This document shows positions 26,781 through 47,944 of a stretch of DNA of 50,183 bases, piece by piece; within the stretch, counting starts at the first letter, position 1; every line of letters begins with the position of its first letter. Where the stretch lies: IMG/VR virus record IMGVR_UViG_3300025325_000003. The stretch is one strand, 5' to 3'. A program made the position numbers and the translations under genes. A model generated the notes under the pieces. That model saw nothing but the letters and a program-made list of their open reading frames with translations. It had not been told where the DNA came from and ran no database searches. The stretch comes from a virus.

Positions 26781-26974
26781 TACGGCTTCCCCATTACGAA
26801 CCCCGCCGCATACTCGAACCGGCCGCGGTCGAAGTTGCCGTTTCGCGCGTAGCAGAACGTACCAAGCTCGCTCACAAGGTGCGCCCACAACGAGAACTCC
26901 TTGGTACCGGGCTCAGGGCGCAACCGGCTAAGTATTTCCGCTAGGTCGGTGAAATCGCGCTTATACATTGCCAT
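26780..26974 (-). CDS. Hypothetical small protein (64 aa)
   Basis: Internal ATG at 26974 follows GGAAGGAAGGTGG and forms a TAATG overlap with the phosphatase stop. Confidence 0.45.
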   Translation of the reverse strand: MAMYKRDFTDLAEILSRLRPEPGTKEFSLWAHLVSELGTFCYARNGNFDRGRFEYAAGFVMGKP

Positions 26975-27969
26975 TAGCAGCACCACCTTCCTTCCTCGTA
27001 CATATACTCCTGTGCGCTGTTCGCTTCCCATGTCTCCATGATGCGGTCCCACGGGTCTTGCGTCGCTGTGCCGTTGACGGTTGCCTTAAAGCAGTCACCC
27101 TCAATGGGGTTGCACTCGTTCGGCATCGAGCAGGGCGGGTCGCCGCACGCCTGGTTCACGTCGTCGGCCTGGTTCCGCAGGTTACCGATGTAGTTCAACT
27201 TCAGCCATTCCTCGTATTCTTCCTCGCTGTCGGCGGTGCGCTTGGCTAGCACCTTTTCGCTTGCAGCGGTAACGAGGTCGGGCTGAGGCAACGCGGTATT
27301 GTAATACGGCGTGCCGTAACTAGCCGGCAGCCGACGTGGCGTTGTCTCCGGTAGGTTGGCTGTCTGCTCGTGGCCCGTTGCGTCGGTCCATATGTCATAC
27401 AAGAACCGCTCCTGCATCGAGGTTTCGATGGCCCAACTACAGTAGGTTTTCCGAACTCGGTCTATAGCTGTCCACGGCTCAACACCCTGCAGTATGAGCA
27501 GCGAGGCGAGCAGCGTCCCAGTGCGACCATGCGCGCCAAGACAACCAGTCTCCACAACCTTGCCGCGCTTTAGCTGCTTGAGCAGCCATCGTGCAGCAGG
27601 CAAGAACTTTCGCGTGCTGGCAGGCGTCATGCCGTCGGACCATGGGTATATGGCCCATTTCGTACGCCCGCCGTCTTGAACCCACGCAGGCTTCCAACCC
27701 GGAGTAGTGACGGTGTGGTCTTTTGCCCACGCCGAATCCAGGTAAAAGCCGATATCGGGTTCAACAGTCATAGCCGCCCGCTCCCGGTCCGCCTCCGTAT
27801 TAATCCAGTAACCAGGTCGGTCCATAAAAGCGGACACTAGCACTTCAAGCCCATTTTCGAGCTTGAAGATATCCTGCCAGTGCGTACAACTTCGCGCATT
27901 AGAAGAAGTTGTTGTCGCTGTCGTAGCTGGTACAAATCGCTTCTTCTTTCGTCGTCGACTCAATCGCAT
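26974..27969 (-). CDS. Cys-based (CX5R) protein phosphatase-like protein with a Cys-rich C-terminal extension
   Basis: VETGCLGAHGRTGTLLASLL matches the PTP/DSP P-loop C-x5-R-[ST]-G (compare CSAGIGRSG). The upstream YPWSDGMTP is WPD-loop-like. ATG at 27969 follows GGGAGGTG. The listed longer start runs into tRNA-Asn. Confidence 0.6.
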   Translation of the reverse strand: MRLSRRRKKKRFVPATTATTTSSNARSCTHWQDIFKLENGLEVLVSAFMDRPGYWINTEADRERAAMTVEPDIGFYLDSAWAKDHTVTTPGWKPAWVQDGGRTKWAIYPWSDGMTPASTRKFLPAARWLLKQLKRGKVVETGCLGAHGRTGTLLASLLILQGVEPWTAIDRVRKTYCSWAIETSMQERFLYDIWTDATGHEQTANLPETTPRRLPASYGTPYYNTALPQPDLVTAASEKVLAKRTADSEEEYEEWLKLNYIGNLRNQADDVNQACGDPPCSMPNECNPIEGDCFKATVNGTATQDPWDRIMETWEANSAQEYMYEEGRWCC

Positions 27970-27996
27970 CACCTCCCTTCGGTGTCTGAGTCTAAG

Positions 27997-28069
27997 CTGA
28001 GGTGGCAGGATTCGAACCTGCAACCACCGGATTAACAGTCCGGCGCTCTACCAGTTGAGCTACACCTCA
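27997..28069 (-). tRNA. tRNA-Asn (anticodon GTT)
   Basis: Perfect cloverleaf: acceptor UGAGGUG/CACCUCA, D arm GCUC-AACUGGUA-GAGC, anticodon arm CCGGA-CUGUUAA-UCCGG, T arm GCAGG-UUCGAAU-CCUGC, discriminator G. Confidence 0.9.
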
Positions 28070-30375: not shown

Positions 30376-30789
30376 CTAGTCGAACTCGCCCATTCGGATG
30401 ATGCCCGCCGAACGACGTAGGACATCCCAGTCGACGACCGCGACGCCGGGGGACACGAGCGTGACTTCGGGCTTAGGTCGCACGACCTTGACCCTAGGCT
30501 TACGCCCTAGGCATTTCGGCTCGTCCACTCGGACGAACGTCCTAGTCCCATCGGCCTCGAGGTGGTACACTGAGACCGGGGCCACGGCGCTCTTTGCCCT
30601 AGGCCGAATGGTGCCAGCAGCCGCCAGAACGTCGTAGGACGCTCCCAAGCCCGCCACCATCGAAGGACCTAGGTCGTCCGGCCGCATGAGGTCGCGTAGG
30701 TCCATGCGGTCGCACGGTAGCGGGTGACGCGCGTTGGCCCAACGGCCTAGGTCGTGCGCCGACCGCCACCCTTGCGTGTCGTAGGTCAT
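30376..30789 (-). CDS. First gene of the leftward early block, hypothetical protein (137 aa)
   Basis: ATG at 30789 has GGAGG 8 nt upstream. The listed GTG at 30798 sits directly on the RBS. The coding sequence carries five CCTAGG sites, read as Leu-Gly or Pro-Arg in DLG, LGR and PRA contexts. Confidence 0.55.
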   Translation of the reverse strand: MTYDTQGWRSAHDLGRWANARHPLPCDRMDLRDLMRPDDLGPSMVAGLGASYDVLAAAGTIRPRAKSAVAPVSVYHLEADGTRTFVRVDEPKCLGRKPRVKVVRPKPEVTLVSPGVAVVDWDVLRRSAGIIRMGEFD

Positions 30790-30818
30790 TAGTCTCACCT
30801 CCTCTCCTCACTGGGACC

Positions 30819-30846
30819 AGTATAGCACGGCGAACGCAGGGGTCAA
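30819..30846 (-). promoter_or_regulatory. Sigma-70-type promoter candidate for the leftward early block
   Basis: On the - strand: TTGACC (30846-30841), a 16-nt spacer ending in TGC, then TATACT (30824-30819). It lies about 30 nt upstream of the ATG at 30789. Confidence 0.55.
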
Positions 30847-31045
30847 TAGGTCCTTAGTAGTAGGCCGGCAGGTCAGGCGACGAGCTGGAGGCCCTAGGTC
30901 AATGGTACTACTGTCTGGTTGGGGGCGCCCTACGCCTTAAGCACTAGACGCGCCTCGGCCGGCCTACGCTACGTACGACCAAGGGCCTAGGCGGGACGGC
31001 AACCAACCCCCTTCCTAAGACCTAGGTCCTTTGGCTGGGTAGTCC

Positions 31046-31079
31046 GCGTTGCGTTATTTTCGTGCAACGTTCGTGCAAC
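31046..31079. repeat. Short tandem repeats in the most AT-rich stretch of the early/late intergenic region
   Basis: GCGTT GCGTT at 31046-31055. TTCGTGCAAC at 31059-31068 is repeated at 31070-31079 (11-bp period). TTTCGTGC also occurs at 17105-17112. Confidence 0.8.
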
Positions 31080-31401
31080 AAACTCGCCTACGTAGTTGGA
31101 GAATGTTGAGATTTCTTGAATGGCCGTTCAAAGTGCTTTTCCTTGCAGCCCAAGGGAAACAAAACTACCCCCGCATCATACCGCCTAGTGTAGAGGGCTA
31201 GTACGGGGAACCTACGAGGCTACGCCAGTAGCCGAGTGGAGGGGCCAAACACCGGACCGGCGGTGAGGTTCCTGCTGGGAACCAAGCGGCCTTAGTCGTA
31301 GGGTTGACCGGCCGCTTAAGCGACAAGCTGCAGCTTTTGAACGTAACCCCTGAACGTCCTTAAGCATAGCCCAGACGTATGTCTGAACGTGGGAGGAACG
31401 T

Positions 31402-31605
31402 GTGCAAAACGAATGTTCGGTAGAGGACCGGCCAGTTAGGCGTCAGGTTCATCGATTTTCTGAAACCGCTCTTGACGACCCCGATTCTGTCTTTTGCGCT
31501 TGTGGGGGCTGGACCCTGAAGCTGTGGGACCCGCGCGTAAAGGGCCGTGACTGGGGCTGGGTTGTAGAGGGTGCGGCAGAGGGTAGAGTCTACGATGCCG
31601 TTTAA
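31402..31605 (+). CDS. Hypothetical small protein (67 aa), first gene of the late block
   Basis: GTG start lies 5 nt after GGGAGGA. Confidence 0.5.
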   Translation: MQNECSVEDRPVRRQVHRFSETALDDPDSVFCACGGWTLKLWDPRVKGRDWGWVVEGAAEGRVYDAV

Positions 31606-31915
31606 CCCGGAGACCGGAACGGCGGCCGGGGAGGCCAGCGGTAGGGCCAGACGTCGCAAGGCTCTGGCTCCAGAGGACCGCGCTCTTGAGGCCATAGCCA
31701 ACAGACTGCCAGCTCTCGCTGACGAGCTGCTCGATGCCGCCTTCGGGAAGGGGGCCTTTGAGGCCCTGAAACCCGAGACGCGGTTGCAGGCCGTAGTACG
31801 GGCGCTTGAGTGGCGGCTAGGGAAGCCGAGCTCACGTCTGAAGGAGGTTGACACGAACGAACAGCCGTTGCCAACCCCTGATGAGCTGTTTAGAACTTCT
31901 GACACGCAGGGCTAG
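31571..31915 (+). CDS. Putative small terminase or DNA-packaging accessory protein (start 31571 GTG or 31595 ATG)
   Basis: Basic N-terminus FNPETGTAAGEASGRARRRK followed by a helical region, located upstream of terL. Assignment rests on position and composition only. Confidence 0.35.
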   Translation: MRQRVESTMPFNPETGTAAGEASGRARRRKALAPEDRALEAIANRLPALADELLDAAFGKGAFEALKPETRLQAVVRALEWRLGKPSSRLKEVDTNEQPLPTPDELFRTSDTQG

Positions 31916-32032
31916 CCCGCGCACCTCGAGGCTCCGCGCGCCGTGCCCTGTCCCTCTGGGAGGAGGGTTCGGCCCGTTGAGGCGTAGGCCGTTTGACCGA
32001 GGTGTCGGAGACCGCCTCTAGAGAGGCAACCC

Positions 32033-32224
32033 GTGAAACGCGAGCGGGCACAGAAGGAAAAGGCCAAGACGACTCGTAAGGTCGCTGTGGACGAGAAGCT
32101 GGAGAGGGTGGACACCACGGCGGTCAAGAACGAGCTGGACGAGCTGCTGGAGGCGATAGACTCCGTCCTGGAGAAGAACGCCGCCGAGTTCGTGCAGGAC
32201 TACGTTCAGCTGGGTGGAGAATAG
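32033..32224 (+). CDS. pup: Prokaryotic ubiquitin-like protein (Pup) homolog, GGE C-terminus
   Basis: 63 aa with a GTG start 6 nt after GAGAGG. The C-terminal half ...NELDELLEAIDSVLEKNAAEFVQDYVQLGGE-stop matches the Pup pattern LL..ID.VLE.NA..FV..YVQ.GG[QE]. Compare M. tuberculosis ...DDLLDEIDDVLEENAEDFVRAYVQKGGQ, quoted from memory. Confidence 0.8.
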   Translation: MKRERAQKEKAKTTRKVAVDEKLERVDTTAVKNELDELLEAIDSVLEKNAAEFVQDYVQLGGE

Positions 32225-32352
32225 TGGCCGACCACGGCAAGGGTAAGTGTGCCGTTGACCCCTGTCCAAAGCATGGTCCCGTTAAGAAGGGCAAGGGCAT
32301 GGGTAAGGGCGGCAGCGGCGGGGGCCACGCCGGTCTCGGACAGGGGGCGTAG
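32224..32352 (+). CDS. Lys/Gly-rich micro-ORF (42 aa), not in the ORF track
   Basis: GTG overlaps the Pup stop by 1 nt. Hand translation: MADHGKGKCAVDPCPKHGPVKKGKGMGKGGSGGGHAGLGQGA. It competes with the N-terminal extension of the listed ORF 32249..32509. Confidence 0.35.
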   Translation: MADHGKGKCAVDPCPKHGPVKKGKGMGKGGSGGGHAGLGQGA

Positions 32353-32353
32353 C

Positions 32354-32509
32354 GTGACACCCGAGAAGTTTAGAGCGGCCATGTTGGTTTCTGGCTCTAT
32401 GGCCGGCGCCATGGCGACGGTTGGTTTCTTCGTGGGGCAGCCCATCTTGATGCTACTGGGTATCGTGCTGTCCTGGTGGTCGTTCTGGCGCTACGAGGTC
32501 CACCGGTGA
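32354..32509 (+). CDS. Small membrane protein (51 aa)
   Basis: In-frame GTG at 32354 follows AGGGGG and lies 2 nt after the micro-ORF stop. Hydrophobic segments: MLVSGSMAGAMATVGFFV and ILMLLGIVLSWWSFW. Confidence 0.45.
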   Translation: MTPEKFRAAMLVSGSMAGAMATVGFFVGQPILMLLGIVLSWWSFWRYEVHR

Positions 32510-32616
32510 AGACTGGGGTCCTGTACGTGACGTGCCCGAAGTGCCGTAGGCCAACGCCTGCGGTGCCACTAGGGCGCGACCTGGAGTGTGAGCACTGTGC
32601 CGATTCGAAAGGTTAA
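32506..32616 (+). CDS. Zinc-ribbon micro-protein (36 aa), not in the ORF track
   Basis: GTGA overlap with the upstream stop. Hand translation: MKTGVLYVTCPKCRRPTPAVPLGRDLECEHCADSKG (CxxC...CxxC). Confidence 0.4.
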   Translation: MKTGVLYVTCPKCRRPTPAVPLGRDLECEHCADSKG

Positions 32617-32737
32617 GGGCGGCTATAAGTGGGGCAGCCAGGGCAAGGTGTACAAGACTCGTAAGGGCGCTGCCAAGCAGGCGCGAGCCGCATATGCCCA
32701 CGGTTACCGCGGCGCCGGCAAAAAGCGAGGAACGTGA
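32588..32737 (+). CDS. Basic micro-protein (49 aa), not in the ORF track
   Basis: Hand translation: MSTVPIRKVKGGYKWGSQGKVYKTRKGAAKQARAAYAHGYRGAGKKRGT. Its stop forms a GTGA overlap with the next ORF. Confidence 0.4.
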   Translation: MSTVPIRKVKGGYKWGSQGKVYKTRKGAAKQARAAYAHGYRGAGKKRGT

Positions 32738-33003
32738 CGAAACGCTGGTCACCGGAGACGTGTCCTAGGTGCGGTAGGCTGTTGCCTGGTGCGCGCTGGG
32801 AGACGTGCTTCTGCTGGCGCACGAGAGGAAGCGGTCTTGATGACTTTACTCGACAAGAGCTGGCGACTCTTCGTCTACGCCTTGAGGGACCTGGAAGAGG
32901 TCGTAAGACTCGCCGTATGCCACGTCCGGGGACATCAGGAACCTCAGCTGTTAGTCGAGGAGAATACGTACCTGAGACTAGTGTGTCCGCGGTGCGGGCG
33001 TGA
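32734..33003 (+). CDS. Hypothetical protein with CPRCG (89 aa)
   Basis: GTGA overlaps at both ends, with 32588..32737 upstream and terL downstream. The alternative ORF 32789..33010 in another frame cannot be excluded. Confidence 0.4.
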   Translation: MTKRWSPETCPRCGRLLPGARWETCFCWRTRGSGLDDFTRQELATLRLRLEGPGRGRKTRRMPRPGTSGTSAVSRGEYVPETSVSAVRA

Positions 33004-34484
33004 GCTCTAGGGCCTATGGGCAGCTCGAGCTCAACCCTGGTGCTCAGGAGGCGTTCGTTCACAACGAACACCTCTACTCCGCGTACATCGGTGGTGTGGG
33101 AAGTGGTAAGACCTATGCCGGCTTCGCTCGCGCCCTTAAGTACGCGATGCAGACTAAGCCAGAAGGTCAGTTTCACGGCCCACGAGTTACGGTGGCGGCT
33201 GCAACGTATCCGCTTCTCATGGACGCAGTGGTACCGCCGGCACAGGAAATCCTGGCGCTAACAGGCGTCGCAGACTGGGACAAGTCCTTTAAGAAGCAGA
33301 AGAAGGAGCTGCACCTCCCCAACGGCGGCACCATCCTCTTCCGCTCTCTAGACGACCCTGACACCGTGATGCGTGGTCCTGAACTTGCCGGGGTGTTCAT
33401 CGACGAGGGCCGTAATGTCTCGCTGTACCACTGGAAGCTGGTCACCGGCCGGCTTCGTCAGAAGGGCTACAAGCGCGCGGCTTGGGTTTGCTCGACGCCT
33501 AACGGCCACGACTGGATGTGGTCGGTCTTTCACCCAGATTCTGTGGACGTGTGGGACGACACTGACTGGTTTGGTGCGCCAACACACGAGAACAAGCACC
33601 TTCCGCCTGAGTACGTTAAGGCGCTGGAGGACTCCTGGGAGGGACGCTTCTACGAGCAGGAGGTCCTCGGCCGCTTCGTTGGAGTGGTTGAAGGCGGTGT
33701 GTTCCCGTACTGGGACCCAGAGACGTTCGTCTCGCCCAACCTAAAGTACAGGACTGACCTACCCCTGTACACGTTCTGGGATTTCGGCTACGGAGACCTA
33801 GGTGTGTGCGTGTTCGCGCAGGTCGAGTGGAAGGAAAGGTCAGATGCCTCACAGAAACGGGGAGGAGCCAAGGTCAAGGTTCCTTGGCTCTACGTGCTCG
33901 ACGTCATCGCTGCAAAAGAGTGGGCGGCTGTGGACTGGGCTCGAGCCTGGAAGTCCAAGCTCGCAGAGTCCTTTGACGGAGCTCGTCCCCTGGGCAACTT
34001 CGGGGACCCGGCTGGTCACCAACGTAACCCGTCGACTGGAACGTCAGTCATAAGTGACTTGAATTCTGCAGGTGTGCCGGTTACGGCGGCGCCTAAGCGG
34101 CCGCAGGACTACGCCATCCGCATCCTGAATAACATGATGGCGGGAGAAAGAGTCTGGGTTCGAACTCCAAACGCAGACCAGGTTGCACAGGCATTCGCGT
34201 CTCATAAGTGGAACGTCGACCGAAACGGCATTCGCATCGGCAACACGGCCGTTCATGACTGGACCTCACACTTCGTTGATGCCGTGCGTTATGGAACTGC
34301 CGTTGTGCTAGGATTGTATGCACGCGAGGACGAATCTGAGACGCCGAGCGAGCTGCTGACACCAGATACTTACGGTCATGTCTTTGACCAGCTGTTGAAC
34401 CCGCCGGCCAAGAAGTGGCTCGGGCCAAAGCGCAAGGCTGTTCGACCTACGTTCGAGGCCCCACCAATCGTACCTAGGAGCTAG
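33000..34484 (+). CDS. terL: Terminase large subunit
   Basis: Walker A GGVGSGKTYAG, Walker B-like GVFIDEGRN, and C-terminal nuclease-region motifs FGDPAG and HDWTSHFVDAVRY. It lies directly upstream of the portal gene. Confidence 0.85.
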   Translation: MSSRAYGQLELNPGAQEAFVHNEHLYSAYIGGVGSGKTYAGFARALKYAMQTKPEGQFHGPRVTVAAATYPLLMDAVVPPAQEILALTGVADWDKSFKKQKKELHLPNGGTILFRSLDDPDTVMRGPELAGVFIDEGRNVSLYHWKLVTGRLRQKGYKRAAWVCSTPNGHDWMWSVFHPDSVDVWDDTDWFGAPTHENKHLPPEYVKALEDSWEGRFYEQEVLGRFVGVVEGGVFPYWDPETFVSPNLKYRTDLPLYTFWDFGYGDLGVCVFAQVEWKERSDASQKRGGAKVKVPWLYVLDVIAAKEWAAVDWARAWKSKLAESFDGARPLGNFGDPAGHQRNPSTGTSVISDLNSAGVPVTAAPKRPQDYAIRILNNMMAGERVWVRTPNADQVAQAFASHKWNVDRNGIRIGNTAVHDWTSHFVDAVRYGTAVVLGLYAREDESETPSELLTPDTYGHVFDQLLNPPAKKWLGPKRKAVRPTFEAPPIVPRS

Positions 34485-34485
34485 T

Positions 34486-36348
34486 ATGCCTATAGATACG
34501 TTTCGCGTCTACTCCGATGAGGAGTCGATGCTCAAAGTCTATAGTCGGCGATTGACGTCGGCGGACCAGCTCTTTGCGAAGACGAAAGCCGAGCGTGAGG
34601 CGTTTGTTGCTCGCTACGCCAACGAGGTAGAGGAAGACCAGGTAACCGAAGAGGGTCACCGGGTCAACGTTACTAACGGCATCGGCATCATCGATACGAT
34701 GTTTGCTTCGATGACTGCAGTTGATGTAGAGTTCATCGCTAAGGCGGTTGGCAACGGTACGCCCGAGCAAGCGGTAGCTGCCACGAGTGCGCTAAACCAA
34801 AGCTGGCACGACACGAAGGGCGCGCGTAGGGCTAAGAAGGCCGTCAAGGACGCGCTCCTCGTCGACCTCGGAGTCGTGAAGGTTTATTACGACTACGTGA
34901 CCGACGTGGAGGTTCGAGACCGCCCCGACGCAGCCGTCAAGGCCGAACTTACCGAGGTGGTCAAGAACGGCGACCAACGGACAATCGATGACATTCTCGC
35001 CTCGGGCGAAATAGCGTTGGTCGAGGATGTTGAGGTCGTGCTACGCGACCGCGTATGCGTTGATTATGTTCCCTGGAACATGGTCCGTTATGACCCCAGC
35101 GCCAATCAGGCTGAAGATGTTCGATGGGTGGCACAGTACACGCGGCACCCGACGCCCGAGGTTACCCTGAATCCGACTTTTCGCGCCTTCGTCCAAGACC
35201 GCTATGGCAAGGTCGTCGGTGACCGGCTGCTAAACGGCTTGGAGGGCGACTCCACCATCGACGCGGTAGGAATCGCAGGAGACTACAGCGACGTTGAGGG
35301 CCTCTCGAAAGACGAGAAGGAGGATTCCGTTCGCGTAACCCTCGTCGAGATGTGGGACTTTGAGACCGGCCTGGTGACCGTCTTTCCCCGCAATCGTACC
35401 GACCTGGTGCTGCATCAGCGGGTCAACCCCCTGATGCTAAACCTAGACCTCGAAGACCGCTCCCCGTTCAAGTTCCTAGGCGTGCGCTGGCTGCCGGGCC
35501 GCTTTGAGGGTGTCGGCGACATGCGCGTTATCCGGCCGTCCCTAGACGAACTGGACGAGTATCGTAGCAACCTAGCGACGCACATTGCACGTACTATCCC
35601 GAAGCTCATCGGACCGGCTAGGGCGCTCTCACCGGCCGGCAAGAAGGCTCTGGAGTCGACCACCTGGGGCGAGTATGTCCCGCTGGAGGAGGAGCACGTT
35701 GCCAGCGAGGTGCAGCCGCTAGTGCCCCCACCGCTGCCGCAGGAGACCTTCGAGGTTCCTGAGAAGATTCAGGCCGAGATGAAGGAGGCTACTGGTGCTA
35801 ACGAAGTCCTTCGTGGTGTCTTCCCATCCCGTCGTACGACCGCGACCGAAACGCAGCTCGTCACGTCGGCCGGTCAGAACCGTCAGGCTGAAAGACGGGC
35901 GGCTCTAGAGGAGTGGTACACCGACGTCGCTCGTACCATGCTGCAGCTAATGCAGGTGTACTACGACCGTGACCGCATACTTCGCTACACGAACGACCTT
36001 GGTGAGGAGTTTGTATGGGAGTGGAACCGCGAGGATATAGCGATGGATGCGGACATTCGCATCTCGCTGACTCCGCGCGAGAACCTAACCCGCGAGGAGA
36101 CGTTCCAGAGGTGGCTGCAGGTAATGAACCTAGCGGTGGCGATGCCCGAAACTGACCGAAACGAGCTAATGAGGCAGGTCTATCGCGCCATCGGCCTACG
36201 CGAGGACGAGATTCGGGGACTCATCAAGACTCCCGAAGAGGTTGAAGCTGAAAGACAGCGTGAAATGGTCTCGACGCAGCTTGCTGCTGCGCCGCAGCCC
36301 GCGTCCAGCTCCCCACCGGGTCTTAGTATTTCGCCTGCCAGAAGCTAG
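34486..36348 (+). CDS. Portal protein
   Basis: 620-aa ORF immediately after terL and before scaffold and capsid. Assignment rests on size and synteny. Confidence 0.7.
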   Translation: MPIDTFRVYSDEESMLKVYSRRLTSADQLFAKTKAEREAFVARYANEVEEDQVTEEGHRVNVTNGIGIIDTMFASMTAVDVEFIAKAVGNGTPEQAVAATSALNQSWHDTKGARRAKKAVKDALLVDLGVVKVYYDYVTDVEVRDRPDAAVKAELTEVVKNGDQRTIDDILASGEIALVEDVEVVLRDRVCVDYVPWNMVRYDPSANQAEDVRWVAQYTRHPTPEVTLNPTFRAFVQDRYGKVVGDRLLNGLEGDSTIDAVGIAGDYSDVEGLSKDEKEDSVRVTLVEMWDFETGLVTVFPRNRTDLVLHQRVNPLMLNLDLEDRSPFKFLGVRWLPGRFEGVGDMRVIRPSLDELDEYRSNLATHIARTIPKLIGPARALSPAGKKALESTTWGEYVPLEEEHVASEVQPLVPPPLPQETFEVPEKIQAEMKEATGANEVLRGVFPSRRTTATETQLVTSAGQNRQAERRAALEEWYTDVARTMLQLMQVYYDRDRILRYTNDLGEEFVWEWNREDIAMDADIRISLTPRENLTREETFQRWLQVMNLAVAMPETDRNELMRQVYRAIGLREDEIRGLIKTPEEVEAERQREMVSTQLAAAPQPASSSPPGLSISPARS

Positions 36349-36357
36349 GAGAAGCGT

Positions 36358-36585
36358 ATGACCATCTTGGAAGCTGGTCTACTTGCCGCTCTAACTGCCG
36401 CAGTAAGTTCCTTTGTGACCTATGTAGTTATTATGGCGCGCGTTGGTAAGATGCTAGCTCGAGCGTACGGCAGCATACATGACGAGGGAAAGAAAGACAC
36501 CTATCATCTCAGTATGGATGATGCCAGAAAGCTCTTTAATCCCACGGATACGACTACACCGCCTACTACTGGACAGTACCTGTAA
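36358..36585 (+). CDS. Small membrane protein (75 aa)
   Basis: N-terminal transmembrane segment ILEAGLLAALTAAVSSFVTYVVIMA. AGGAG lies before the ATG. Confidence 0.5.
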   Translation: MTILEAGLLAALTAAVSSFVTYVVIMARVGKMLARAYGSIHDEGKKDTYHLSMDDARKLFNPTDTTTPPTTGQYL

Positions 36586-36727: not shown

Positions 36728-37699
36728 ATGGCACAGAGCCGTGACGAGCTTAAGGCTCAGCAGCAAGTTGAGCTGAGGACCGCCCTAGCGGAGGCGGTTG
36801 AGAAGTATCCGTTGACAGCCGAAGCAGAAGACGAGGAAGACTGGAACAGGTGGGAGGCCGAAGGAGGCCAGCCGCCCGAGACCGTTCCCGACCCCGAAAC
36901 TTCGACGCCCGATAAGCCTGCTCCGGGCGAGGCTCCGCCTAGTACAGTCGAGGCTACCAGCAAGGAAGAAGTTTCATCCGAGGGTGAAACCACAGATGAA
37001 TCTCCTACCGAGTACTGGGGCGTAGATTTGAACGGCCTTCCGAGCGAGAAGCGAGCGGAAGTTATCGCTCATTTTGAGCAGCAGGATAGTACCATCCGGA
37101 AGCTCCAGGAACGACTGGCGAAGAAGCCAGAAGAGCAGCCGGCACCGGAACCTGAGACGCAGGGGCCGGTCAGCGATGAGGACATCATGCGTGCCCTCGG
37201 CTTGGACCCCGAATCTCTCGAGTACGAGCAGCTGGCGCCGGTGGTTCTACCGCTCGCCAAGACCGTGATGAAGCTGGAGGAAACCGTCGATGAGATGTCT
37301 CAGCGCGAGACGACCCGTGCGGTTGAAAGCGCCTGGAACACGACACTCGACGACCTAGAATCGACGTACGGCAAGCTGCCGTTCGAGCGGGTTCAGGTCC
37401 TTCAGTACGCGATTGAGGAGGGCATTCCGTCTCCCGAGGCCGTCTACTTCCGTCTTACCGCCCCTGCAAAGCGCGAGGTGGAGGAGGCAGTAGCCAAGGC
37501 CCGTCTCGAAGCGTCGAAGAGGGAAGCTTCGGCAGGTCCGAAGCCGAGCTCCTCGTCCGGGACCTCTGTCGGCGTAAAGGCCGGCATGAGTCTACGAGAC
37601 GCGGTCGCGGTCGCAGCGAAGGAAGCGGAAAAAGAGACCAAGCTCCGCTGGCGCGATGCCATTAAGGGTCGTCGCATAGCTGTTCCGGAGAACGAGTAA
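36728..37699 (+). CDS. Scaffolding protein candidate (323 aa, acidic, helical)
   Basis: Sits between the portal and major capsid genes. Composition is E/A/P-rich and coiled-coil-like. Confidence 0.6.
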   Translation: MAQSRDELKAQQQVELRTALAEAVEKYPLTAEAEDEEDWNRWEAEGGQPPETVPDPETSTPDKPAPGEAPPSTVEATSKEEVSSEGETTDESPTEYWGVDLNGLPSEKRAEVIAHFEQQDSTIRKLQERLAKKPEEQPAPEPETQGPVSDEDIMRALGLDPESLEYEQLAPVVLPLAKTVMKLEETVDEMSQRETTRAVESAWNTTLDDLESTYGKLPFERVQVLQYAIEEGIPSPEAVYFRLTAPAKREVEEAVAKARLEASKREASAGPKPSSSSGTSVGVKAGMSLRDAVAVAAKEAEKETKLRWRDAIKGRRIAVPENE

Positions 37700-37720
37700 A
37701 CTCGCTAGGAGAAACAAGAT

Positions 37721-38770
37721 ATGTCCATTTACGCCGACCAGTTTGATGTTCTGGTCACGACTACGCTGGACAAGGTCCGGCCGGTTCTGACTGACCAGAT
37801 ATCAAACGAAAATGTGTTGCTTGCGTGGCTCAATATGAAGGCACGCATCAACGTTGACGGCGGGACAGTCATCCGGCGACCTCTCATGTTCGCGTTCAAC
37901 GACACGGTGGGTTCGTACTCTGGTTACGACCTCCTTGACGTGACGCCGCAGGAAGGTCTTGGCTGGGTTGAGTACGAGTGGCGCCAGCACGCTGGCTCTG
38001 TGACCATTTCGGGAGAAGAGGTCAAGAAGAACAGCGGTTCGGCTCAGCTTGTCAACCTGCTTCAGGCCAAGATGGACCAGCTCAAGCTGTCCATCGCGGA
38101 CGACTTTAACGCCATGCTCTACGGTTCCGGCAACGGAAACGGCGCTAAGGACTTCATCGGTTTGATGGGGATTGTCTCAGACGGAAAGCAGTATGGGTCC
38201 TCGGACACCGGCGCTGCCCTCCCGACGGGCGCCTCGACGACCGATACTCACCTCGGTGGCATTAGTGCCACAACGTACACCTGGTGGAGGTCGAACCTAG
38301 TCACGTCCCCCGTGGACCTGACCACGTTTGACGGAGTCGATAGCCTGAACAACCTCTATAACAGCATTCGCGTTGACCGCTCCAAGGTTGACCTGGAGCT
38401 GACCACGCAGGCGAACTTCGAAGCGTACGAGGCCCTCGCGGTCCCGAATATCCGCTTCCAGTCGCTGCGCGCGGCCGACCTGGGGTTCGAGACCATCGCG
38501 CACAAGACGGCTGAGGTCGTCTTCGACCCCGACGTTCCCACGTCGGGTGCGTGGCACGATGGTCTGAACACCGTGGCCGGTGGAGGGGCTTGGTTCATGT
38601 TGAATGCCGACCGCCTGGAGTTCGTGCAGCACGCGGATTCCTGGCTCTCGCCGACCGAGTTCGTTCGGCCGTATAACCAGGACGCCAAGACGGCCCTGGT
38701 GTTGTCGATGGGTAACCTGATTACGGACTCGCGCCGTAGCCACGGGCTCATCCTCAATACCGTCGTCTAG
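37721..38770 (+). CDS. Major capsid protein candidate (349 aa)
   Basis: Position after the scaffold gene, typical size, and strong RBS AGGAG. A stable hairpin follows. Confidence 0.7.
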   Translation: MSIYADQFDVLVTTTLDKVRPVLTDQISNENVLLAWLNMKARINVDGGTVIRRPLMFAFNDTVGSYSGYDLLDVTPQEGLGWVEYEWRQHAGSVTISGEEVKKNSGSAQLVNLLQAKMDQLKLSIADDFNAMLYGSGNGNGAKDFIGLMGIVSDGKQYGSSDTGAALPTGASTTDTHLGGISATTYTWWRSNLVTSPVDLTTFDGVDSLNNLYNSIRVDRSKVDLELTTQANFEAYEALAVPNIRFQSLRAADLGFETIAHKTAEVVFDPDVPTSGAWHDGLNTVAGGGAWFMLNADRLEFVQHADSWLSPTEFVRPYNQDAKTALVLSMGNLITDSRRSHGLILNTVV

Positions 38771-38785
38771 GTAACCGACTCGTAG

Positions 38786-38818
38786 GGGGCCGGATTGTGG
38801 CCCTCGTGCCCCGGCCCC
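38786..38818 (+). terminator. GC-rich hairpin after the capsid gene (attenuator or terminator candidate)
   Basis: 8-bp stem ggggccgg (38786-38793) / ccggcccc (38811-38818) with a 17-nt loop, followed by tt. It overlaps the possible GTG start at 38797. Confidence 0.45.
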
Positions 38819-39231
38819 TTACGACAACGGGAGGAATGATGGCTCTTAAGAACATGACAGGAAACGTTGGAACTGCTCCAGTCTATACCAGCCGGTGGGC
38901 TGAACGAGACGCGCGACGCAGGGAGAATATGCGGCTAGCCCGGAAGGCAGCCGCTGCTCGTTCTGGTCGCAGCGTTAAATCGGTCAAGGACCGGGTGGAG
39001 AAAGCTAAAGCAGTGCTAGCAAACAAGAATGTTACTGGAGCCATTGCGACGATACAGGGAGTAGCGCCGACGGATGTCGACGTCTATATCCTAGCCGAGC
39101 GACATGGGCAGGCCCGCAGGGGCGTGCTCAGGGCGTTCGGTCCCCCGCGCGGTAGCGTGGAACGGCAGTACCTTGCCGAAGCGGGCCTGGGGAGCCCCGA
39201 AGATACCCCGGATGAAGGGGCAGAGGAGTAG
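38797..39231 (+). CDS. Hypothetical virion-module protein (144 aa from GTG 38797; alternative ATG starts at 38836 and 38839)
   Basis: ORF on the operon strand. AGGGGG lies 7 nt before the GTG, and GGGAGG lies directly before ATGATG. Confidence 0.5.
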   Translation: MALVPRPLTTTGGMMALKNMTGNVGTAPVYTSRWAERDARRRENMRLARKAAAARSGRSVKSVKDRVEKAKAVLANKNVTGAIATIQGVAPTDVDVYILAERHGQARRGVLRAFGPPRGSVERQYLAEAGLGSPEDTPDEGAEE

Positions 39232-39234
39232 GAC

Positions 39235-39711
39235 ATGACCGTAAAGAAGAGGTACGCCGACCTCCTGACCGGCACCAGCCACGTTGGCGGGGGTGCGGTC
39301 TCGGGCGAGGCACGCGCAAATATCGGGCTCGGGTCCGCTTATGCTAGGGTTCTTGGGTTCGAGTTCAAGGGCGACGACGCCGACGTGGACACGAACAACA
39401 CGCTGGAGTTGACGGATGCGGACGGGCGACTTTTGCTCGTCGCAACGGCGTTCGACGCGGGTGGGACCACATCCGACGAGTACACTGAGCAGGAAGCCGC
39501 CATCGGTACGACTGTTTCAGCCGCCTCCACGGTTGGGGTATTCCGCATAGTTGGATATCCCGAGGCGCTGTACGTAGATGCCGCAGGGGACGCCTCCGCC
39601 GACACCGAGGGCATGGTTGCCGGCGTGTTCGCCAAGTCGCCAGTGACCGCGACCATCGCGGCCGGTACGGACGGCGACTGGCAAAGGGTCACCCTCTGGG
39701 TGGAGGTGTAA
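39235..39711 (+). CDS. Small virion-module protein, member 1 of a four-member paralog family (158 aa)
   Basis: C-terminus ...DWQRVTLWVEV and internal LGFEF...DADG. Compare 40686.., 41029.. and 41506... Confidence 0.55.
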   Translation: MTVKKRYADLLTGTSHVGGGAVSGEARANIGLGSAYARVLGFEFKGDDADVDTNNTLELTDADGRLLLVATAFDAGGTTSDEYTEQEAAIGTTVSAASTVGVFRIVGYPEALYVDAAGDASADTEGMVAGVFAKSPVTATIAAGTDGDWQRVTLWVEV

Positions 39712-39712
39712 C

Positions 39713-40600
39713 ATGCCAAACGTTGACAAGGAACTCCACAACCCCGAGGTCACCAACGCCAACCTAATCAAGGAGCGCACGACTTCCAAGCCGAAGCGCG
39801 CCCTGAGGGGGGCGGCCGGTGGCACGTACGTCGGGCCGGTCCTTTCAACGGCTGCCATCGGTGACTCGTCCATAACCCACGCCACCGGCATCGCTGCCGG
39901 CGGGGTGGAGGACAGCACCGGGTTCCGTGAGTCCGACACCTATCGCATGGGTACCGCCGAGGACGCCGCTACGGCGACCGGGAGGCCGAACCCGGGGGCG
40001 GGCCCTGCCCGCACCGTGTACCGGTCGAACGGTATCTTCGGTGGGTCGGTTCCCGGCTACCCGGCGCAGCGGGCGGGGCAGCGTGACGCTGCCGCGGGCG
40101 CTGGTTTGACGGCAGAAGGTGCCGCACCTGCCTTCATGGACAAGCGGTCCAACATCTACGGCGACGGGGGCGAGGCCCTCGGCTCCGCGGGTCGCGGGAC
40201 GCGCGTCCTAGCAGGCGCTGTGGTCAAGGGCGACTTGGGGCAGGTCTCTGGACAGCCCCGCATCCCAGCACCGACCACGCAGGGCACGGCAAACCCGGCA
40301 GCGGGCGTCGTGTCCATCATCGCGGCAGCCGGGCAGGTCGAGTCCGACCTTCACGCGGACGACATCACTGGCGGGGCCAACGGCCGAACGGGCTGTGTCG
40401 TCTACGTCTTTGCGCGTGACACCGACACCGACGAGGACCTGGCACTGGTCCGCAAGGGAGACTTCGACACTACGACCGCTGGGGCCGTTACCGGCTGCAC
40501 GTCAATGACCGCGGCTACGTACTCTGTGTACACCGCATTCAAGGATGCCGCTGGTAACATCGGGCCCTGGTCGGCTCGTACGACCGTTGTCGTCTCGTAA
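39713..40600 (+). CDS. Gly/Ala-rich virion protein with a C-terminal Ig/FN3-like domain (295 aa), decoration-type candidate
   Basis: The C-terminal ...YSVYTAFKDAAGNIGPWSARTTVVVS resembles the last strands of FN3/Ig-like phage decoration domains. Confidence 0.45.
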   Translation: MPNVDKELHNPEVTNANLIKERTTSKPKRALRGAAGGTYVGPVLSTAAIGDSSITHATGIAAGGVEDSTGFRESDTYRMGTAEDAATATGRPNPGAGPARTVYRSNGIFGGSVPGYPAQRAGQRDAAAGAGLTAEGAAPAFMDKRSNIYGDGGEALGSAGRGTRVLAGAVVKGDLGQVSGQPRIPAPTTQGTANPAAGVVSIIAAAGQVESDLHADDITGGANGRTGCVVYVFARDTDTDEDLALVRKGDFDTTTAGAVTGCTSMTAATYSVYTAFKDAAGNIGPWSARTTVVVS

Positions 40601-40617
40601 TAAAGAAACCCCGAGGT

Positions 40618-40648
40618 CCCAGCCCGTGCCCGTCTCTGGCGGGCTGGG
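40618..40648 (+). terminator. Hairpin after the Ig-like gene (terminator or attenuator candidate)
   Basis: 9-bp stem cccagcccg / cgggctggg with a 13-nt loop. No U tract. Confidence 0.4.
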
Positions 40649-40685
40649 GCCCCCAAGAAGGCGCGTAGCGCCCAAGGAGTAAGAC

Positions 40686-41027
40686 ATGGCCTTCAAGGAG
40701 AGAAGCACAGGAGCAATCGATACGGTAGCCACCGACCTAGATTTCGGGGCACCGTACGTACGGCCCGTCCGTATCCGCTACGTCGCGTCAACCGACACTA
40801 CGACTTCGTGGGTCGTTGTTGATGCCGATGGATACAACGTGTTCACCGTCGCCTCGGGCGACTTCACGACCGCCGTTGACCAGGGCCTCGTCTATGACGC
40901 GGCCGAGGGCTCGGACGGTGCCGCCATTATCAACGAGGGAAGCAAGGTCTTCAAGAATCCGCTGACGGCGACGCCCTCGGGTGTGGGCGCCGGCACCGCC
41001 ACCCTGACCATTTGGGCGGAGGTGTAA
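40686..41027 (+). CDS. Small virion-module protein, paralog family member 2 (113 aa)
   Basis: C-terminus ...GTATLTIWAEV. Internal VVVDADGYNVF. Confidence 0.55.
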   Translation: MAFKERSTGAIDTVATDLDFGAPYVRPVRIRYVASTDTTTSWVVVDADGYNVFTVASGDFTTAVDQGLVYDAAEGSDGAAIINEGSKVFKNPLTATPSGVGAGTATLTIWAEV

Positions 41028-41028
41028 T

Positions 41029-41496
41029 ATGGCCCTTCGTAAGCAGGATTTCGAGGTCACAACCTCCCTGCCTACGGCGGCGCCGACCAAGTTCGCGGGA
41101 CAGTCGCGCGAGAGCGTAATCCGCTACTCCAACCGGCCGGCATGGCTGCTGGGCTTCGAACTCAGCGACGACCTGTTGACCGGAACGTTCGCGGGCTTCT
41201 GCGTGCGCGAGGTCGATGTCATCGATGACCCGACAGGGAACGGAACGGATGCAGATGCATCCGGGCGTGTCCTCTTTAACTACGTCCCGCACGCACTGGA
41301 CGCGAGCGGCAACCAGGGACCCGTATTTTTGTTCGCCGCCGAGTCCGTTGCCGTTGACGGAACTACAGTCGGAGAAGGACCGCCGGTCCTCTTCAACAGC
41401 AAAAAGCTGGAGGTCGAGGTCTTCGGCGGGGGTGCGGCAACTGATACTGTCACCGTTACCCTCTACTACGAGAGCGCCGGCGACTACAGGTTCTAG
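41029..41496 (+). CDS. Small virion-module protein, paralog family member 3 (155 aa)
   Basis: Internal LLGFEL and C-terminal TDTVTVTLYYE. Confidence 0.5.
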   Translation: MALRKQDFEVTTSLPTAAPTKFAGQSRESVIRYSNRPAWLLGFELSDDLLTGTFAGFCVREVDVIDDPTGNGTDADASGRVLFNYVPHALDASGNQGPVFLFAAESVAVDGTTVGEGPPVLFNSKKLEVEVFGGGAATDTVTVTLYYESAGDYRF

Positions 41497-41505
41497 GAGG
41501 CTAAC

Positions 41506-41958
41506 ATGGCACACGGAGAGACACAGGCCGTGCTCGGCCTCGGCCGGCCGGCTACTAACGTCCCCTCGCCGCACACGGCAGAGGATAATGACATCACAGG
41601 CATCCTTCAGGATGCTGATTTCGACGGCATTGTGGATGCTGACATGCTAGCGACGAATGCTGTAGGCACGGATGAAATTGCCGCGGATGCAGTGACCAAG
41701 GCCGAGCTAGCTGGTGGATTCATGAAAGCAACCGTTGCTTCGGGTGTAGATGAAACCGGCCCCAACAACATCCCCGCAACTGGAATGGCCGTGGGTGATG
41801 AGGTCGTGGCGGTCCTCGTGTTCACAACCGAGGCATCTCTCGCTACGATGATATCTCACGCCGGAACGTTCACCGCAGCCGCTGACGGTTGTACAGCCGG
41901 TACGCCGGTAGACAATACCAGCAACCAGTACATAGTCATCTGGCTCGACCTAACGTAA
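41506..41958 (+). CDS. Small virion-module protein, paralog family member 4 (150 aa)
   Basis: C-terminus ...NQYIVIWLDLT. Same size class and position as the other members. Confidence 0.45.
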   Translation: MAHGETQAVLGLGRPATNVPSPHTAEDNDITGILQDADFDGIVDADMLATNAVGTDEIAADAVTKAELAGGFMKATVASGVDETGPNNIPATGMAVGDEVVAVLVFTTEASLATMISHAGTFTAAADGCTAGTPVDNTSNQYIVIWLDLT

Positions 41959-41968
41959 GGGAGGAACT

Positions 41969-42292
41969 ATGGCAGTCTTCTGCTACCGTTGCAGGAGCTG
42001 CGGTGTTCGCTGGCAGGGCGACTTTGCCGGCGAGCATTGCAGCACGCCCGACGTCATACGCGATTATCGCTCAGAGGCCGCTGGCTTTGCCGTTGGCAGC
42101 CTGAAGCGAGAGCGCGAGGCCGGCGGGTCGAAGGCTGTCCGCGACAAGTTCCTTCCAACCATAGACGATTTCAAAGGCCCCTCTGACCCTGATGGGTCGG
42201 AGGGCCTTCGTCAATGGGCTGACGAGCACGACCCCAAACCCGGCAACAAGAGGCCGATGTACCCCGACGGCATACCGCGCAGGAGCTGGTAA
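41969..42292 (+). CDS. Zinc-ribbon protein (107 aa)
   Basis: N-terminal FCYRCRSCGVRWQG...HC resembles FmdB-type CxxC ribbons. Confidence 0.45.
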   Translation: MAVFCYRCRSCGVRWQGDFAGEHCSTPDVIRDYRSEAAGFAVGSLKREREAGGSKAVRDKFLPTIDDFKGPSDPDGSEGLRQWADEHDPKPGNKRPMYPDGIPRRSW

Positions 42293-42486
42293 TGCAGGCG
42301 TACATACAGAACGATGAGGGTAAGATTATCGCAACCTATTCTGGCTCGCAGCTCTTCGTATTTCCTGGAGTCGACCGCGCAGCTGTCGCCTTCTTTCTCT
42401 TCCAGCTCCTAATGGAAGCGATGCCGACTAAGACTCCACAGGTAACATGGGGAACGGCTTGGAGCCCTAGGAATGTGGGTACATAG
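42292..42486 (+). CDS. Hypothetical small protein (64 aa)
   Basis: TAATG-coupled start. Confidence 0.45.
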   Translation: MQAYIQNDEGKIIATYSGSQLFVFPGVDRAAVAFFLFQLLMEAMPTKTPQVTWGTAWSPRNVGT

Positions 42487-42488
42487 CT

Positions 42489-42713
42489 ATGACAACTGTT
42501 ACTATCCGGCATCCCGTAACTACGCGTCTTGACGACGTGGGAGCCGGCGTGTCATACGTTGGGGAAGCCTCGCCGGGCGAGGACACTGATGTCGCGCGCT
42601 GGCGCATCAAGCGAATTACCGAGACCGGTGCAGATATCGTTGTTGACTGGGCCGATGGTAACAACTCTTTTGATAACGTCTGGGACAACCGACTTTCGCT
42701 GGACTACAGCTAG
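42489..42713 (+). CDS. Hypothetical small virion-module protein (74 aa)
   Basis: ORF on the operon strand. Confidence 0.5.
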   Translation: MTTVTIRHPVTTRLDDVGAGVSYVGEASPGEDTDVARWRIKRITETGADIVVDWADGNNSFDNVWDNRLSLDYS

Positions 42714-42724
42714 AGGAGTAGACG

Positions 42725-44620: not shown

Positions 44621-44629
44621 GGGGCCTAG

Positions 44630-46465: not shown

Positions 46466-46473
46466 GGGAGGAC

Positions 46474-46680: not shown

Positions 46681-46683
46681 ACC

Positions 46684-47187: not shown

Positions 47188-47196
47188 GAGATACAG

Positions 47197-47943: not shown

Positions 47944-47944
47944 C

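Follow-up and report, generated by a model that had tools for sequence, protein, structure and literature searches.

The subject of this analysis is a short gene in a stretch of viral DNA of 50,183 nucleotides (nt) (IMG/VR virus record IMGVR_UViG_3300025325_000003), which is called here, at its full length, the window. The open reading frame (ORF) at positions 32033 to 32224 encodes a protein that, judged by profile and pairwise comparisons, is a true member of the Pup (prokaryotic ubiquitin-like protein) family, and it is carried by a tailed-phage genome, outside any cellular Pup-proteasome locus. To our knowledge, no ubiquitin-like system of degradation tagging other than pupylation is known in bacteria, and the stress survival and virulence of mycobacteria are among the traits for which it is important.

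The pup gene of the window

The following features were recognized in the gene:

32033 to 32224, plus strand: phage pup gene, 63 codons and a TAG stop, with a GTG start; it matches the Pup profiles and the Pup chains of the Protein Data Bank (PDB)
32020 to 32026, plus strand: sequence motif AGAGAGG, a putative Shine-Dalgarno sequence, 6 nt 5' of the pup GTG
32033 to 32113, plus strand: codons 1-27, disordered Lys/Arg-rich N-terminal segment, presumed to thread into the Mpa pore, with a charge of +5 over residues 1-20
32114 to 32209, plus strand: codons 28-59, helix-forming region that aligns with the Mpa-binding helix and with the PafA/Dop-binding helices
32210 to 32224, plus strand: C-terminal Leu60-Gly61-Gly62-Glu63 and stop; the di-glycine and Glu form the conjugation end

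The GTG at 32033 is the furthest-upstream start codon within the open frame, which closes with the TAG at 32222 to 32224 and gives a product of 63 amino acids (aa), MKRERAQKEKAKTTRKVAVDEKLERVDTTAVKNELDELLEAIDSVLEKNAAEFVQDYVQLGGE, in the size class of the Pup family (about 60-70 aa). An earlier note, made from the DNA letters and their ORFs, had described exactly this ORF ending in GGE before the stop and had proposed that it encodes a Pup. Profile searches bore this out: the Pfam profile PF05639 matched residues 5-63 with 50.9 bits (cut-off 27, E 2.9e-13) and the NCBIfam profile TIGR03687 gave 48.9 bits (cut-off 41.45). A phmmer search of the PDB matched the Pup chains of Mycobacterium tuberculosis at E 3e-6 to 5e-5, and together these results confirmed a similarity to the Pup family far above chance. 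Over the last 30 residues the phmmer alignment shows 18 identities with M. tuberculosis Pup (60%), slightly more than the half that the note had estimated. The M. tuberculosis anchors L40, I43, D44, V46, L47, E48, N50, A51, F54, V55, Y58, V59 and Q60 are all kept, the protein ends in YVQLGGE directly before the TAG, and the alignment thereby upholds the claim that the length class, the helix that binds Mpa, PafA and Dop, and the diglycine are preserved. No family matching the phage Pup was found in PHROGs.

An AlphaFold2 (AF2) model built from a 22-sequence alignment predicted no secondary structure for residues 1-27, with a predicted local distance difference test score (pLDDT) of about 60-76, and a single helix at residues 28-59 (pLDDT up to about 92; mean of the model, 75). 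A Foldseek comparison of this model with the PDB gave 0 matches, as expected for a lone helix. The G+C content (GC) of pup is 59.9%, against a gene mean of 58.9 +/- 4.0%, and its GC at third codon positions (GC3), 0.83, is near that of the major structural genes. Lysine makes up 12.7% of the phage Pup against an average of 3.6% in the phage. Contigs of independent ENA, Logan and JGI samples, about 48 in all, carry the identical protein in the identical surroundings, and the locus is thus no artefact of assembly. The natural variants of this Pup are limited to K8R, V19M and T28I, all of them in the N-terminal half; the first two lie within the disordered segment and the third is the adjoining first residue of the helix.

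Absence of pupylation genes from the phage genome

The window is a tailed-phage genome of the Caudoviricetes type. Its first 128 nt are repeated at 50056 to 50183, which gives a closed circle of about 50,055 base pairs (bp) with a GC of 59.3%. Based on Pfam searches it encodes a large terminase subunit (TerL), a portal protein and a family A DNA polymerase; a DnaB-type helicase, an archaeo-eukaryotic primase (AEP), a PD-(D/E)XK nuclease, a deoxynucleoside monophosphate kinase and four tRNAs were also identified, together with a major-capsid-like protein that is 89% identical to one encoded by another IMG/VR contig (L115).

The genes for the ligase PafA, the depupylase Dop, Mpa and the proteasome were searched for in the whole window by tblastn with two divergent query sets, one of Mpa, Dop and PafA from a Bifidobacterium-like locus and the other of Mpa, Dop, PrcB, PrcA and PafA from an Ilumatobacteraceae locus. 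In agreement with what had been noticed before, none was found: only noise appeared at E<=10 and nothing at E<=1e-5. The gene of the window is a Pup gene, yet it does not adjoin dop, pafA, mpa or proteasome genes and lies outside any cellular Pup-proteasome locus. Since neither a ligase nor a depupylase, Mpa or a proteasome is encoded by the phage, it has to rely on the host system for any activity related to pupylation. The comparison with cultured phages offered no close relative from which that host might be inferred: a megablast of positions 31000 to 36500 against 50,697 GenBank phage records gave no match, nor did a tblastn of the portal against cultured phages, and TerL and the polymerase showed only about 28-31% identity to assorted phages.

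The packaging region

The pup gene lies near the 5' end of a long rightward gene block, in the order 106-aa gene, pup, four small ORFs, TerL and portal:

30799 to 31401, no strand: long intergenic region of about 600 bp in the ORF map, between the leftward block (which ends at 30798) and the rightward block; probable divergent control region
31595 to 31915, plus strand: conserved 106-aa gene directly upstream of pup, the left edge of the pup slot; no Pfam or PHROG match
32224 to 33010, plus strand: four small ORFs between pup and TerL, from gene calls on identical contigs; some source calls put minus-strand ORFs here
32224 to 32352, plus strand: putative small ORF 1, 42 aa, Gly/Lys-rich (VADHGKGKCAVDPCPKHGPVKKGKGMGKGGSGGGHAGLGQGA); it starts on the last base of the pup stop (TAGTG)
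32354 to 32509, plus strand: putative small ORF 2, 51 aa, hydrophobic
32597 to 32737, plus strand: small ORF 3, 46 aa, inside a longer call (32588 to 32737) that matches phrog_31267; conserved in contig L132
32840 to 33010, plus strand: putative small ORF 4, 56 aa
33000 to 34484, plus strand: TerL, PF03237 47.2 bits and PF04466 36 bits; 53-58% identity to the TerLs of the phage family
34486 to 36348, plus strand: portal protein (SU10/P22-type), PF23899 75.7 bits and PF16510 53.2 bits; 51-63% identity to IMG/VR relatives

The pup stop codon is found 776 bp before the TerL start, on the same strand as TerL and portal, so that the location in the packaging module proposed earlier holds. As for the co-transcription that had been claimed along with it, we infer it from the TAGTG overlap between the pup stop and the next start, and because no terminator-like site was found in 30700 to 33100. 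Homologues of the 106-aa gene with 38-52% identity lie upstream of TerL in seven related contigs (L132, L133, L135, L136, L138, L139 and L144), and from this position it is a candidate for the small terminase or another packaging-associated protein. The 42-aa ORF that follows pup had neither a Pfam or PHROG match nor a homologue in the relatives of the phage family.

The intergenic region contains the repeats D1 and D2, inverted repeats and one sigma-70-like site on the minus strand (30846 to 30819). Motifs resembling CCTAGGTC and TAGGTC(A/C)TTAGT recur several times over 30726 to 31080, both direct and inverted, with a tandem TTCGTGCAAC pair at 31059 to 31079. These repeats may be operator or origin repeats.

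Pup in the phage family of the window

The window belongs to a family of phages whose TerL and portal proteins are 53-58% and 51-63% identical to its own, respectively; a scan based on the portal added 12 relatives, and contigs L132 and L115 stand at 53-56% for TerL and 58-59% for the portal. The same slot, in which Pup lies between the homologue of the 106-aa gene and TerL, is present in five members (the window, L132, L138, L139 and L144), and it occurs without Pup in L133, L135 and L136. In L115 Pup is placed after the portal and before the next head gene. The more distant L024 (its Pup is P0005), whose giant protein and DnaB are 39% and 42% identical to those of the window, carries Pup after the endolysin. 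Pup is thus a frequent, long-retained and dispensable accessory gene of this family.

The Pups of these related phages (L132, L138, L139/L144, L115 and L024) resemble that of the window in their basic N-termini. The Lys/Arg-rich segment gives charges of +5 in the window, +6 in L132 and about +4 in L139/L144. They differ from it in that most end in GGQ and not in GGE (L132, L138, L139 and L144). The Pup of L138 (5435 to 6061) has a 4-residue insertion in helix 2 (VLADNEEFRNAEAFVDAYRQKGGQ), and those of L139/L144 have Glu at the position of K61 (VQEGGQ); these are the most divergent phage Pups that we saw. A further observation concerns the capsid-like proteins of L115 (5153 to 6205) and the window (37721 to 38770), which are 89% identical, whereas identity falls to 45-59% for TerL, portal and the next head gene. 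Such a jump points to strong mosaicism or to a recent exchange of the capsid gene.

Pup genes in other phages and in cellular genomes

An exhaustive phmmer search of 1.84 billion representative proteins yielded 492 Pups at E<=1e-3, of which the best after the query was only 53% identical; a first, word-indexed protein search had returned only the query itself. The contexts of seven near neighbours (P0002, P0005, P0023, P0007, P0013, P0151 and P0012) were phage-like in every case, with dense same-strand small ORFs and lysin, helix-turn-helix, terminase-like or portal-like genes, and none of the seven had pupylation genes nearby. The cellular loci looked different. Among the best 80 similar Pup loci from 185,579 species genomes, nearly all of Acidimicrobiia or unclassified Actinomycetota, 78 had pupylation or proteasome genes within 6 kb, and the Pups that they encode show 41-54% full-length identity to the phage Pup. 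A control locus on a 1.1-Mb Ilumatobacteraceae contig (P0204) has the canonical Mpa-x-Dop-Pup-PrcB-PrcA...PafA arrangement. The closest cellular Pups are those of Actinomycetota, mostly Acidimicrobiia.

Concerning cultured phages, a tblastn search of the 50,697 GenBank phage records gave two matches. One is gp36 of Streptomyces phage Dagobah (QMP84414.1, MT711977.1), the only Pup of a cultured phage in this set, which is annotated as 'ubiquitin-like protein Pup'. Its 78 aa close with VQVGGE, and its gene is flanked by those of the endolysin and the primase-polymerase. Dagobah gp36 shares with the Pup of the window the GGE end, a non-basic residue (Val) at the K61 position and the lack of a ligase nearby; it differs in its greater length, its longer acidic middle and its place outside a packaging module, and the two phages have no genes in common. 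The other match, MT835496.1 (L002), comes from human faeces and is labelled 'UNVERIFIED: Bacteriophage sp.'; we do not count it as a phage Pup, as it contains a cellular Mpa/Dop-Pup(GGQ)-PafA locus at 37585 to 49716 and the 159-kb scaffold is probably bacterial. Its Mpa-like and Dop-like sequences are found in one 1021-aa ORF, a fusion or a frameshift.

In IMG/VR, two alignment-based scans found 17 and 13 viral contigs that carry Pup; a single-sequence scan of the same database found none, and the alignment-based scans were needed. The first 17 contigs and Dagobah fall into about 9 groups that have no genes in common with each other or with the window. The search for phage homologs that the earlier note had called for thus gave Dagobah and 30 IMG/VR contigs, and no pupylation gene was detected within 6-10 kb of Pup in any viral locus. 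In many of these genomes phage hallmark genes adjoin Pup, the place of which varies widely. It lies directly upstream of TerL in L016/17 (PF03237), in L018 (PF03354 and PF20441) and in the L015/L020/L022 group, where it is followed by two small ORFs, an ORF of 548-552 aa and a strong Phage_portal match, and probably also in L026, where the terminase and portal matches are weak. Elsewhere it is part of replication modules, beside a UvsW-type helicase in L009, between an SNF2 helicase and an exonuclease in L019, and also in L007 and Dagobah, or it is the last gene after an M15 endolysin (L024 and L025).

A few other loci deserve mention. L107, a contig of a Nitrospira sp. metagenome-assembled genome (CAZEHM010000005.1, 84375 to 96563), was rejected as viral because its neighbours encode H+-pyrophosphatase, RecJ and RelA/SpoT; it holds an orphan cellular pup with no pupylation or proteasome gene within 6 kb. 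The Pup contig L122 (IMGVR_UViG_3300036760_000022) has a GC of 46%, against 58-69% in the other Pup phages, which hints at a low-GC host lineage with pupylation. Two longer proteins, P0003 (188 aa) and P0009 (157 aa), open with a hydrophobic N-terminus that resembles a signal peptide, after which come two or three Pup-like C-terminal domains in tandem; each of these domains ends in QKGG, K or Q and a linker, in a manner reminiscent of polyubiquitin.

We found no paper that describes or analyses a phage-encoded Pup in the searchable literature. A 2025 field minireview of pupylation mentions neither phage nor virus, the searchable reviews and papers on pupylation make no link to phage infection, and the Dagobah genome paper does not mention gp36. 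The earlier impression that no phage Pup had been described is correct for the literature and wrong for annotation, since Dagobah gp36 stands under that name in GenBank and phage-borne copies are auto-annotated at JGI. The Pup family is known and individual phage copies are already labelled 'Pup'; the gap is one of analysis and literature, not of detection.

Conserved and altered positions of viral Pups

We compared 25 non-redundant viral Pups, taken from the about 20 lineages that viral Pups span, with 78 context-verified cellular Pups, mostly of Acidimicrobiia. All 25 viral Pups match PF05639, and the 16 hydrophobic or anchor positions tested, as well as the GG[E/Q] end, are conserved in every one of them; the viral ORFs that were detected by way of an internal motif close, without exception, with exactly GG[E/Q]-stop. 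The Pup of the window keeps all of its hydrophobic anchors (L38, L39, I42, V45, L46, F53, V54, Y57 and V58).

In the alignment, the clearest difference between viral and cellular Pups is an altered stripe of charged residues. It involves the following positions, given in M. tuberculosis numbering and with Fisher p-values that are nominal, given that the cellular Pups are mutually related:

E42: viral 16/25, cellular 78/78, nominal p 8e-7
E52: viral 13/25, cellular 78/78, nominal p 3e-9
R56, basic: viral 13/25, cellular 77/78, nominal p 4e-8
K61, basic: viral 23/25, cellular 78/78, nominal p 0.06

These four residues are also present in M. tuberculosis Pup and in the cellular Pup of L002; they are conserved, but they are not listed as family-defining in the sources examined. 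A, A, Q and L stand at these near-invariant sites in the Pup of the window, which alone among 129 clean Pups has Leu at the position of K61. Because of their i+3/i+4 spacing, positions 42, 45, 49, 52 and 56 would form one helical stripe, which reads A-S-K-A-Q in the window, where A41, K48, A51 and Q55 correspond to E42, E49, E52 and R56 of M. tuberculosis. K61 is highly conserved and is the site at which free Pup is itself pupylated to form di-Pup, while a K61R Pup still pupylates PanB normally (PMC4783102). In-cell nuclear magnetic resonance placed E42, E49 and K61 among the residues perturbed by Mpa, which is suggestive only.

With respect to the N-terminus, the first residues of the window Pup, MKRERAQKEK, align with the motif M-x-E-R-x-Q-K-x-K of cellular Acidimicrobiia Pups, and its start is therefore homologous to the cellular ones. 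In the cellular proteins this motif is followed by an acidic patch of EEVVEE type that is missing from the window, P0002, P0005 and L132. The resulting charge of the window Pup, +5 over the first 20 residues and -3 overall, is above that of all 78 cellular Pups, and a charge of at least +3 over the first 20 residues was seen in 9/25 viral and 2/78 cellular Pups. A basic N-terminus as a general signature of phage Pups was nevertheless rejected for the class as a whole (Mann-Whitney p=0.86 and 0.45); it holds for the family of the window and a few others. The earlier note was thus right in calling this segment strongly basic, and its contrast with an acidic, Gly-rich cellular tail applies to M. 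tuberculosis Pup only.

The note had also pointed out that, with Glu at its end, the protein could be conjugated without deamidation by Dop. The idea of GGE as a special adaptation that bypasses Dop was rejected, as GGE ends occur in 53/78 cellular and 14/25 viral Pups (the difference is not significant), and the GGQ copies of the four family relatives would need Dop, which implies processing by the host enzyme.

The Pup of the window can therefore be set beside the cellular Pups of Actinomycetota (M. tuberculosis, PDB 3M91, 3M9D and 7PX9; Acidimicrobiia, 64 aa, such as P0204) as a protein of the same family and length class, with a disordered N-terminus, a helix-forming C-terminal half, identical hydrophobic anchors and a Q-x-G-G-[E/Q] end in common. 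It differs from them in being encoded by a phage, outside the Mpa-Dop-Pup-PrcB-PrcA-PafA locus, in its identity of at most 54% to any cellular Pup found, in the four charged positions, in the lack of the EEVVEE-type patch and in a charge outside the cellular range.

Other features of the window

A 1809-aa ORF at 5589 to 11018 has no Pfam match and is 39% identical to a 2043-aa protein of the distant relative L024; its product may be a giant virion or ejection protein. Directly after it, in the window as in L024, comes a gene of about 190 aa, which in L024 encodes a Peptidase_M15_4 lysin. A 349-aa ORF on the minus strand (26974 to 28023) gave sub-threshold Pfam matches of dual-specificity phosphatase type (PF22785 and PF22784), with which the PHROG label over the same residues, 'thymidylate synthase', disagrees. 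Several large proteins of the late region (42725 to 49556 and 202 to 1143) contain only 0.7-1.7% Lys, against the phage average of 3.6%, which may bear on a published proposal, the avoidance of pupylatable lysines in the proteins of actinophages.

Possible roles of the phage Pup

We favour the reading that this is a functional phage Pup, conjugated by host PafA late in infection and altering pupylation in the cell, and we regard it as evenly poised between true and false. The protein would probably be expressed with the late packaging and structural genes. Host PafA may then attach it through its C-terminal Glu to lysines of infected-cell proteins, and a supply of tag under phage control would raise or redirect pupylation. 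Because the Mpa-binding helix and the disordered N-terminus are kept, the tagged proteins would probably go to degradation by the Mpa-proteasome. The phage Pup would be a re-tuned protein and not a plain copy, with charged residues replaced and the N-terminal acidic patch lost, and the re-tuning may change its handling by Dop, PafA or Mpa, or its own pupylation.

The published mechanism gives these changes a frame. Mpa binds residues 21-51 of Pup as a single helix while the disordered N-terminus threads into the pore, whose loops grip it through unspecific backbone contacts (PMC8755798), and its final 27 residues fold into two helices that lie in the groove of PafA or Dop; of these two enzymes Dop makes far more contacts with Pup, especially at the terminal residue (PMC8599861). 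The anchors for PafA, Dop and Mpa and the exact GG[E/Q]-stop are kept in about 20 lineages, which argues that viral Pups still engage the host pupylation machinery; the absence of a phage ligase points the same way, and the conjugation-competent end appears to be under selection. Free Pup is unstable and could not be seen in extracts of M. tuberculosis (PMC5358908), and the level of Pup hinges on its recycling by Dop (PMC12288473), so that an extra supply from the phage could matter. That many unrelated phages carry Pup suggests that phages exploit or interfere with host tagging.

Several points weigh against this reading. The proposed conjugation by PafA is read from the protein sequence, and that the host possesses PafA, Dop and Mpa is presumed from the similarity of the phage Pup to those of Actinomycetota. 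Pup is dispensable, as it is absent from same-family members such as L135 and L136. Since the viral Pups were detected by motifs that the family conserves, copies in decay would have escaped notice, and the cellular set with which they were contrasted is phylogenetically narrow (mostly Acidimicrobiia) and consists of mutually related sequences. The departures of the window Pup at four near-invariant charged positions could also mean weaker productive binding rather than re-tuning.

A more far-reaching version, which we put forward tentatively as a possibility, is that the re-tuned Pup is ligated by PafA but handled unlike host Pup, and so takes over the only ubiquitin-like system of the host. 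The altered stripe (42, 52, 56 and 61) and the de-acidified N-terminus might then lead, for example, to poor removal by Dop or to a lack of self-pupylation, and the effect would be the irreversible proteasomal destruction of host or defence proteins, or the recycling of amino acids during virion production.

It is rather unlikely that the protein is a decoy or competitive inhibitor, an abundant late mimic of Pup that occupies the PafA/Dop groove or the Mpa coiled coil without productive tagging, shutting down host pupylation or proteasomal degradation and protecting phage proteins. The binding helices are fully kept while the charged positions invariant in cells (E42, E52, R56 and K61) are altered, the charge (+5 over the first 20 residues, -3 overall) is outside the cellular range, the Lys that supports di-Pup formation is lost, and strong expression is suggested by the high GC3. 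According to a preprint, mycobacteriophage proteins contain unusually little lysine, which is proposed there to be an avoidance of pupylation (10.1101/2023.01.18.524605); such a threat would be worth blocking, and several virion-region proteins of the window phage have only 0.7-1.7% Lys. A pure binder, however, needs no exact GG[E/Q]-stop, no full disordered N-terminus and no cellular length, all of which are kept in 25/25 viral Pups, even if the argument from the GG[E/Q] end is not decisive, since the terminal residue aids binding, mainly in Dop (PMC8599861). The earlier note had imagined a poorly threadable Pup that jams Mpa. The unspecific contacts of Mpa (PMC8755798) lend this no support, as they give no reason for a basic tail to stall and a block of threading is not predicted from them, and viral Pups as a class do not differ in N-terminal charge (p=0.45).

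An exapted protein is improbable. Here a Pup-derived product with a basic disordered head and an acidic helix would serve DNA packaging or head assembly, for instance by binding DNA, terminase or portal, and would need no PafA, Dop or Mpa. In favour of such a role are the slot next to the 106-aa gene and before TerL, conserved in five members of the family, the place between the portal and the next head gene in L115, the Lys/Arg-rich N-terminus as a family trait, and the fact that no fewer than three other lineages (L016/17, L018 and the L015 group), and probably L026, have Pup directly ahead of TerL. Against it, Pup lies in replication or lysis modules elsewhere (Dagobah, L009, L019, L007, L024 and L025), the TerL-upstream Pups of other lineages are not basic, and the residues kept in 25/25 are the PafA/Dop/Mpa-binding anchors and the conjugation end, which is not expected under a new function. 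The same diversity of contexts and pattern of conservation disfavour a neutral passenger, a host pup acquired horizontally into a permissive slot near the terminase without benefit, which we consider very improbable: Pup is indeed missing from the close relatives L135 and L136, its position varies among related phages (window and L132 versus L115 and L024) and the region upstream of the terminase is a common site for accessory genes, but the gene is fully assimilated to the base composition of the phage, its nearest relatives are phage-borne and not cellular Pups, it is kept across a family with about 55% core-protein identity, its functional core is conserved in 25/25 Pups of about 20 lineages, and the population variants spare its C-terminal half.

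Two known systems invite comparison with the functional phage Pup that we favour. Some eukaryotic viruses carry ubiquitin, as in the v-ubiquitin of baculoviruses, a virus-borne copy of a host modifier that relies on the conjugation enzymes of the host. The concept is alike, whereas fold and chemistry are unrelated and the hosts are eukaryotes: ubiquitin has a beta-grasp fold and an E1-E2-E3 cascade, and Pup is disordered and is attached by a single glutamine-synthetase-like ligase. In bacteria, Bil-type ubiquitin-like conjugation reportedly acts as a phage defence, in work ascribed to Hor, Wolf and Sorek in 2024. It likewise places ubiquitin-like conjugation at the interface of phage and bacterium, but in that case tag and enzymes alike come from the host, and it is the phage that becomes tagged. 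The two sets of proteins are unrelated, and the window contains no part of Bil.

If the more far-reaching version of the proposed function is true, this would be the first described prokaryotic virus to encode a ubiquitin-like modifier reliant on host conjugation enzymes. Dagobah is in culture and carries pup, and pupylation and proteasome mutants of its host, S. coelicolor, exist, so that the idea is testable now. The phage Pups also amount to a natural mutational scan of the tag, in which the residues free to change stand out while the binding core is kept; their variation could help to tell apart what PafA, Dop and Mpa each require, and could be of use for Pup-based proximity labelling, in which K61R variants are already employed. 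An enzyme-less Pup in about 20 phage lineages, its retention within a family and its consistent change imply that pupylation is contested in the interactions of phages and actinobacteria, in parallel with ubiquitin as a contested process for eukaryotic viruses.

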